This document shows, piece after piece, positions 6,027 to 6,325 of a stretch of 31,154 nucleotides of DNA. How positions within the stretch are numbered: the first letter of the stretch is position 1; the number at the start of each line of letters is the position of its first letter. The DNA is from Anaerolineae bacterium (lineage in GTDB: Bacteria > Chloroflexota > Anaerolineae > DUEN01). The stretch is from positions 1 through 31,154 of the forward strand of contig JAGHDS010000238.1 of NCBI GenBank assembly GCA_021159845.1. Reading direction: 5' to 3'. Below the pieces are notes generated by a model. The model made no database searches and had not been told where the DNA came from. It saw only the letters and a program-made list of their open reading frames with translations. Both the position numbers and the translations under genes were made by a program.

Positions 6027-6068
6027 ATAAAACAAGAGAGCGTGGAGCTCATCGCTCCACGCTCTCTT
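6027..6068 (-). terminator. Attenuator terminator of the aro operon leader
   Basis: Perfect 15-bp stem AAGAGAGCGTGGAGC/GCTCCACGCTCTCTT with a 5-nt loop, followed by GTTTTAT on the minus strand, about 40 nt upstream of aroH. Confidence 0.85.
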
Positions 6069-6092
6069 TAACTCCCGGTTCGTCCTGATCGG

Positions 6093-6266
6093 CTAAGCGG
6101 TTGATTGCCTCCAGGCGTGGGGCGATGAGCCTATATGGAAGCAGGCATAAAAGTAGGCAAAATAAAACCCGCGCCAGCCGAAGCTGAAGCGCGGAGCATC
6201 ACCAACACGCCCTAGAAGCGCTTTCCTCGCCGATTGTGTCCTATTGTGGTGTAATGGCTCACACAT
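6093..6266 (-). CDS. Putative attenuator leader peptide, 57 aa, aromatic-rich
   Basis: Manual translation: MCEPLHHNRTQSARKALLGRVGDAPRFSFGWRGFYFAYFYACFHIGSSPHAWRQSTA*. Ten of residues 27-43 are F/Y/W. AGGA lies 10 nt before the ATG. The ORF sits between the promoter and the terminator. Confidence 0.8.
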   Translation of the reverse strand: MCEPLHHNRTQSARKALLGRVGDAPRFSFGWRGFYFAYFYACFHIGSSPHAWRQSTA

Positions 6267-6296
6267 CGCGGACAGTCCTACCCAGGAAGTAACTTC

Positions 6297-6325
6297 ATGA
6301 TAGCACGCAGACCTCGAGTTGTCAA
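6297..6325 (-). promoter_or_regulatory. Sigma70 promoter of the aro operon
   Basis: TTGACA(6325-6320)-N17-TATCAT(6302-6297) with an extended TG motif. Confidence 0.8.

Follow-up and report, generated by a model that had tools for sequence, protein, structure and literature searches.

The phenylalanine and tyrosine biosynthesis operon described here is very probably switched on by its own leader when Phe and Tyr run short. In this study, we have analysed a stretch of 31,154 nt from an Anaerolineae bacterium (the window in what follows), in which every element of a candidate attenuator lies on the minus strand, in the order promoter, small open reading frame (sORF), terminator and aroH. Based on these sequence elements, on their conservation and covariation and on the constraint acting on the type of codon, we consider it highly probable that the element is a classical ribosome-mediated (Yanofsky-type) transcription attenuator, which would sense the supply of Phe-tRNA and Tyr-tRNA. 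The mechanism itself is a textbook one, and our understanding of it is unchanged; what is added is a well-supported family of leader-peptide attenuators that is absent from Rfam, nearly universal upstream of aroH in Anaerolineae and present in several other Chloroflexota lineages.

The window belongs to a MAG that is 86% complete and made up of 521 contigs. The sequencing runs that hold the locus are DNA metagenomes only, the one with most sequence being labelled a hydrothermal-vent metagenome, and no RNA run carrying the window sequence was listed. Downstream of the leader, the operon (1566..5985) consists of genes that abut or overlap:

5527..5985, minus strand: aroH, chorismate mutase type I, the first gene after the leader (Pfam CM_1, 1.2e-48)
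5530-4670, minus strand: prephenate dehydratase (Pfam PDT and ACT)
4669-3602, minus strand: DAHP synthase, first copy (Pfam DAHP_synth_1 and FXD)
3599-2565, minus strand: DAHP synthase, second copy (Pfam DAHP_synth_1 and FXD)
about 2444/2387-1566, minus strand: prephenate dehydrogenase, tyrA (Pfam PDH_N and PDH_C)

The ATG of aroH is at 5985, with AAGGAGG just 5' of it. The operon holds the entry step (the two DAHP synthases) and the Phe/Tyr branch (aroH, pheA and tyrA), while shikimate-pathway genes and trp genes are absent from it. The first-pass annotation of this DNA had placed "the whole aro operon" under the leader; this stands for the entry step and the Phe/Tyr branch and does not extend to the shikimate pathway. 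A glucuronate isomerase gene (UxaC, 3-1547) lies on the same strand as tyrA, only ~18 nt beyond it. On the other side of the operon, between glyA (6636-7922) and the aro promoter, there are two minus-strand hairpins, at 6394-6437 and 6546-6562. One is a 13-bp stem (CCCCCUUCUCCCA/UGGGAGAAGGGGG), the source of a spurious mir-150 match in Rfam, and the other is terminator-like (GGCUUCUC-GGA-GAAGCC). The glyA transcript is probably ended by these hairpins, which would leave the aro operon with a promoter of its own.

The leader region starts with the following features:

6297..6325, minus strand: sigma-70-type promoter (TTGACA 6325-6320, 17-nt spacer, TATCAT 6302-6297, TG extension)
6093..6266, minus strand: leader peptide ORF of 57 codons, MCEPLHHNRTQSARKALLGRVGDAPRFSFGWRGFYFAYFYACFHIGSSPHAWRQSTA (ATG at 6266, stop TAG at 6095-6093)
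6138..6188, minus strand: regulatory codon run FSFGWRGFYFAYFYACF, residues 27-43, 17 codons of which 6 encode Phe, 3 Tyr and 1 Trp

The promoter matches the consensus at 11 of 12 positions and is the sole promoter-like site within 5500-7000. The leader ATG lies 30 nt from the -10 box and is preceded by an SD-like GGGTAGGA at 6283-6276. Phe and Tyr account for 9 of the 17 codons in the run, the core of which, F34-Y40, covers 6167-6147 (UUU UAU UUU GCC UAC UUU UAU).

The same transcript carries the strands of a putative switch:

6169..6195, minus strand: hairpin P0, CCGCGC..cUUCGg..GCGCGG (-17.8 kcal/mol, z -3.6)
6112..6130, minus strand: segment 2, the antiterminator 5' strand, GCUCAUCGCCCCACGCCUG, within the ORF and ending 17 nt before its stop
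6066-6049, minus strand: segment 3, the terminator 5' arm plus loop, partner of segment 2
6034..6068, minus strand: intrinsic terminator of 15 bp (5' arm 6068-6054, loop 6053-6049, 3' arm 6048-6034)
6196..6215, minus strand: 1', an upstream partner of segment 2, CUAGGGCGUGUUGGUGAUGC, specific to the window (in MFE folds of -48.9 kcal/mol, z -3.7)

The terminator has a folding energy of -30.5 kcal/mol (z -7.6), and the U-tail GUUUUAU follows just 3' of it, at 6033-6027. The duplex between segments 2 and 3 reaches -24.7 kcal/mol. When only 6134-6049 is folded, that is, before segment 4 is made, the MFE structure is the 2:3 antiterminator (-28.7 kcal/mol); once segment 4 is added, the fold switches to the terminator. 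Since the terminator exceeds the antiterminator in equilibrium stability, the switch must be kinetic. The near-consensus promoter, the 57-codon ORF with its aromatic run and its stop at 6093, the cUUCGg hairpin at the start of this run, the antiterminator strand inside the ORF and the 15-bp terminator had all been proposed in the first-pass annotation, and all of them were recovered here, with the antiterminator pairing where it had been placed.

The leader DNA was matched upstream of aroH in 6/6 genomes of the same family and in a number of further families of the class, and the nearest named relatives of aroH itself come from Anaerolineae/Chloroflexota MAGs. Independently of the leader, we surveyed sampled genomes of the class by a Pfam CM_1 search, in which aroH was found in 109 of 151 genomes, and 100 upstream regions were fetched. 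An F/Y-rich sORF followed by a strong terminator, the pair to be expected in related genomes if the first-pass reading is right, occurs in ~100 of ~115 Anaerolineae aroH loci, the latter number combining the 100 fetched regions with loci from earlier relative searches, some of them duplicated; the genomes are related and not independent, so that this and the other conservation counts and p-values given here overstate the support. In these ~100 loci, the gap between the sORF stop and the terminator, as located by an RNAfold-based terminator finder, is 17-45 nt. Several complete genomes are among the carriers (for example at loci L151, L154, L174 and L177). In most Anaerolineae loci, the best 12-aa window upstream of aroH contains 6-10 F/Y/W residues; read as the reverse complement, the same regions reach 1-5, with one case of 6, which sets the aromatic run above chance. 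At about 45 Planctomycetota aroH loci, the best count per window is mostly 2-5 and the leader is absent. These loci (L035-L080 and L084) are mostly from Pirellulales and encode AroH proteins 62-74% identical to that of the window; after Anaerolineae, the nearest AroH proteins are those of Pirellulales, and some other Chloroflexota classes are more distant. The leaderless Pirellulales loci may have arisen by lateral transfer of aroH in which the regulatory region was left behind. Outside the class, the element is found in the Chloroflexota families f64 (4/4), f65, f72 and f77 (1/2), perhaps in f68, and also in a Chloroflexia MAG; it is absent from others, including a Dehalococcoidia MAG.

A promoter matching at least 9 of 12 positions, followed by an in-frame start codon, precedes 78 of the 85 distinct orthologous leaders, the start codons having been assigned by rule. 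The peptides are 25-67 aa long with a median of 54, an unusual length for a leader, and fall into two groups, of 25-45 and 50-67 aa. The long ones carry ~30-40 unconserved codons before the run and the short ones only 4-19. The N-terminal ~30 residues are unconserved, yet the frame stays open behind the promoter and start codon. In some of the short leaders (alignment A1; L085-L184), a distance of only 6-10 nt separates the -10 box from the start codon, and their transcripts may therefore be leaderless.

What is conserved in the run is the codon. We aligned 71 leaders with MAFFT, blind to structure (alignment A1), and in the run columns the first codon position is T in 66-69 of ~70 sequences, the second is A or T and the third is T or C. 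The pattern T-[A/T]-[T/C] describes exactly the four Phe and Tyr codons, and the conserved unit is therefore an in-frame Phe/Tyr codon rather than an RNA motif. The aromatic codons, the loss of which would have spoken against the first-pass reading, are thus kept in this form across the 71 leaders, with free exchange between the two amino acids: some relatives have YYYYYYY, others FFFYYY. UUU is the minor Phe codon in the genome of the window (20%) and yet makes up 77% of leader Phe codons. Sensing of Phe, Tyr and perhaps Trp had been suggested, and the codon pattern upholds Phe and Tyr. Trp sensing is not supported: the lone UGG of the run (6176-6174) lies in the pairing segment 1 (UGGCGCGGG), the 85 leaders have 293 codons for Phe and 330 for Tyr (623 together) while TGG is rare, with 49, and the operon has no trp genes.

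The RNA strands around the run covary. In A1, compensatory changes affect 14 of the 15 pairs of the terminator (71 leaders), whose stem core, GCGUGGAGC...GCUCCACGC, is common over much of the class. This degree of stem conservation is unusual, and we attribute it to the chain of complementary strands that segments 1, 2, 3 and 4 form. Class-wide, segment 1 reads GGCGUGRRG and lies immediately 5' of the run, and segment 2 reads CUYCACGCC and lies within the ORF, with 10-25 nt between its end and the stop. Canonical pairs fill 74% of the alignment cells of the 2:3 antiterminator; sliding the partner by 1-3 columns gives 26-48%. Compensatory changes are seen in 12 of its 15 pairs, and 0 of 500 shuffles attained the observed value. 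The clearest 2:3 covariation links the 5' part of segment 2 to bases of the terminator loop, which take no part in the terminator as such. Across loci, segment 2 pairs better with its own terminator (-21.3 kcal/mol) than with foreign ones (-17.1 kcal/mol), with a median rank in the best 10-16%. In the core of the 1:2 anti-antiterminator, 71% of cells are canonical over the class, against 32-53% in slid controls. The pheL/trpL-type logic first read from the window is thereby borne out, with sORF, aromatic codons, terminator and antiterminator conserved and covarying across the class.

These observations also weigh on other ways of reading the locus. A terminator/antiterminator pair alone is compatible with any RNA switch that binds a ligand, a tRNA or a protein (a riboswitch, a T-box or a TRAP/PyrR-like system), in which case the aromatic frame would be incidental to a U-rich motif; the core GGGUUUUAUUUUG and the stem GCGUGGAGC are indeed kept at the nucleotide level across families, and the entire leader folds well (z -4.8). 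The stem conservation is accounted for by the chain of mutually complementary segments, and the run, unlike a fixed RNA motif, varies exactly as Phe and Tyr codons do in one frame, many runs being YYYYYYY or FFFYYY with quite different nucleotides. Such a switch would also leave aside the in-frame start behind the promoter and the constant spacing between in-frame stop and terminator, which recur in ~100 loci. An Rfam cmscan of 5800-6700 at E up to 10 returned only spurious miRNA and sRNA matches on hairpins, with no match to the T-box riboswitch (RF00230) or to Phe_leader (RF01859). We take this binding-type explanation to be very unlikely, and the absence of an Rfam match to mark an independent family and not a pheL homologue.

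Two further readings keep the ORF and change its role, and we regard both as slightly less probable still. The sORF could encode a functional small aromatic-rich protein, with the hairpin as its own or a constitutive partial terminator and no sensing of amino acids, an idea to which the size of the peptide lends something: 57 aa here, when classical leaders have 14-32 aa. The peptide outside the run is unconserved, its lengths are bimodal and it has no Pfam match; the conserved C-terminal part is the RNA strand that covaries with the terminator arm and loop, and the element is always coupled to aroH or aro operons, the run being composed of the operon's own end products. The peptide could also be a nascent arrest peptide, TnaC- or SecM-like, that senses free Phe and Tyr in the ribosome tunnel instead of tRNA charging. 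The ~30 codons before the run in the long class are enough to fill the exit tunnel, and one subfamily keeps a WRGFYFAYF motif; such sensing would nevertheless have the wrong sign, an abundant amino acid switching a biosynthetic operon on, and it fits poorly with an unconserved N-terminal sequence, a free order of F and Y and the common short leaders, in which the run is reached after only 4-10 codons.

From these elements we infer the stalling of the ribosome, its timing and kinetics and the regulatory response as follows. Transcription would start at ~6290, and the 57 codons of the leader would be translated by a ribosome. A shortage of either Phe or Tyr would stall this ribosome in F34-Y40 (6167-6147), where it would cover segment 1 (6175-6168), just 5' of the run, and occupy the 1-2 loop. 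Segment 2 (6130-6112) would be left free to pair with segment 3 (6066-49) once the latter is made; with 2:3 formed, no terminator could form and RNA polymerase would enter aroH-pheA-DAHPS-DAHPS-tyrA. When Phe and Tyr are plentiful, the ribosome would instead cross segment 2 as far as the stop codon (6095-6093). This codon lies within the 2-3 loop, and a ribosome there would block the 2:3 helix, so that the 3:4 terminator (6068-6034) would form and transcription would end at 6033-6027. In the case of no translation, an upstream strand would sequester segment 2 and the terminator would again form. The sequestering strand would be segment 1 (GGCGUGRRG) over the class and mainly 6215-6196 in the window.

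At this locus, the model is weakest at the anti-antiterminator step. Segment 1 of the window (GGCGCGGG, 6175-6168) cannot pair with segment 2 without a C-A mismatch in the middle, and it is tied up in hairpin P0. The other candidate partner, 6215-6196, forms a duplex of -27.2 kcal/mol with segment 2 (z -2.3) and sits 5' of the footprint of a stalled ribosome; its position differs between the closest relatives, and for this reason the 1':2 helix is weakly supported as the main anti-antiterminator. The mismatch, the sequestration in P0 and the unconserved position of 6215-6196 upstream of the footprint together make 1:2 the weak step here.

Hairpin P0, conserved and abutting the UUUUAUUUU codons, is an unusual feature. 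Its 3' arm is segment 1 (GGCGCGGG), which directly adjoins UUUUAUUUUG (6167-6158), so that P0 ends within the leader ORF exactly where the U-rich first Phe/Tyr codons begin. A P0-type hairpin of -14 to -24 kcal/mol, ending exactly at UUUUAUUUUG, occurs in 18 distinct loci including the window (the other 17 include L009, L011, L090, L164, L168, L170, L173 and L184), and its stem covaries from CCGCGC/GCGCGG to CCACGC/GCGUGG. Over the class, hairpins that end at the start of the run are stronger, with a median of -10.1 kcal/mol, than those at control positions lying 30-70 nt further 5' (-5 to -8 kcal/mol), a comparison between non-independent relatives that overstates the support. We used this positional control because per-locus mononucleotide shuffles of the pre-run hairpin gave mostly weak z-scores in these GC-rich leaders. 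In form, P0 looks like an intrinsic terminator or a hairpin pause for which the regulatory codons would serve as the U-tract. One tentative idea, which we think possible without finding it probable, is that P0 acts as a coupling checkpoint, RNA polymerase pausing or terminating at the regulatory codons unless a ribosome melts P0. If this were true, translated transcripts alone would reach the real decision point, and P0 together with the long leaders (~54 codons) would represent a distinct way to synchronise transcription with translation in this lineage.

Within the genome of the window, a generic scan for terminator-linked sORFs returned this leader as the sole case with at least 6 F/Y in 10 residues; the scan is useful for F/Y and His only, being too noisy for Trp (164 mostly spurious matches). 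A second leader is present on another contig of the genome (C350; L185, minus strand, about 3010-2830). It consists of a TTGACA-17-TACACT promoter, an sORF MRVKMSFPNCSGIHHHHETG (...SGIHHHHETG) with four consecutive His codons, and a strong terminator GAGACTAGTTGAGACCAACTAGTCTC with a U-run, and the gene after it encodes a 421-aa hisZ-like protein with a tRNA-synt_His domain and no match to an anticodon domain. An HHHH leader and terminator in front of a hisZ-like gene suggest that leader-peptide attenuation is used more than once in this organism. More broadly, our results bring classical translation-coupled attenuation to a deep-branching, mostly uncultured phylum, and attenuation operating in Chloroflexota would imply tight coupling of transcription and translation there. 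For annotators, the element offers an easily recognised signature, both of an sORF that lacks annotation and of how Phe/Tyr synthesis is regulated, and its natural variants (Tyr-only or mixed Phe/Tyr, long or short, with or without P0) form a comparative set for the tuning of attenuators. The first-pass annotation had held the arrangement to be undescribed in Chloroflexota, and in line with this the literature searched, a scope outside which most subscription journals fall, yielded no earlier description in Chloroflexi, Chloroflexus or Anaerolineae.

Among known systems, T-box riboswitches are the usual attenuators of amino-acid operons in Firmicutes and have been reported in Chloroflexi too (PMC2494555). 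They resemble our element in that a choice between terminator and antiterminator reports tRNA charging; the key distinction is that a T-box binds the tRNA directly, whereas here the report would come through codon translation, and the leader has no specifier-loop match. The textbook case for Phe is E. coli pheL-pheA (RF01859), which belongs with trpL, hisL, leuL and thrL. The leader shares with this class a four-segment architecture (2:3 and 3:4, with a 1:2 pairing that is only putative in the window), the regulatory codons beside segment 1 and an antiterminator that overlaps the terminator 5' arm, and with pheL-pheA the control of a Phe biosynthesis gene. There are also clear differences. pheL has 15 codons and Phe only, as compared to 57 codons with Phe and Tyr in the window. 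The segment 2 of trpL is located at its stop codon or beyond it; in the window it lies wholly within the ORF, the stop falls in the 2:3 loop and segment 1 is sequestered by an additional hairpin, P0.

The nearest counterpart in function is the aroR-aroF system of C. glutamicum (Neshat et al. 2014, J Biotechnol, as summarised in PMC11802643 and PMC7356990). A leader with Phe-Tyr-Phe lies upstream of aroF there and stalling raises transcription, and a review summary of the original work states that aroR responded to Phe limitation and not to Tyr availability (Neshat et al. 2014, summarised in PMC11802643). Both systems place a mixed Phe/Tyr leader ahead of an operon with DAHP synthase among its genes, and the notion of a single leader integrating Phe and Tyr, which the first-pass annotation had put forward, probably holds for the window without being new as an idea. 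C. glutamicum belongs to a different phylum, the Actinomycetota, and the likeness considered here is one of function. Set against aroR as described there, the Anaerolineae leader is much longer, with 6-10 aromatic codons that are often dominated by Tyr in the relatives, and it precedes an operon in which aroH comes first and which unites pheA and tyrA with the DAHP synthases.
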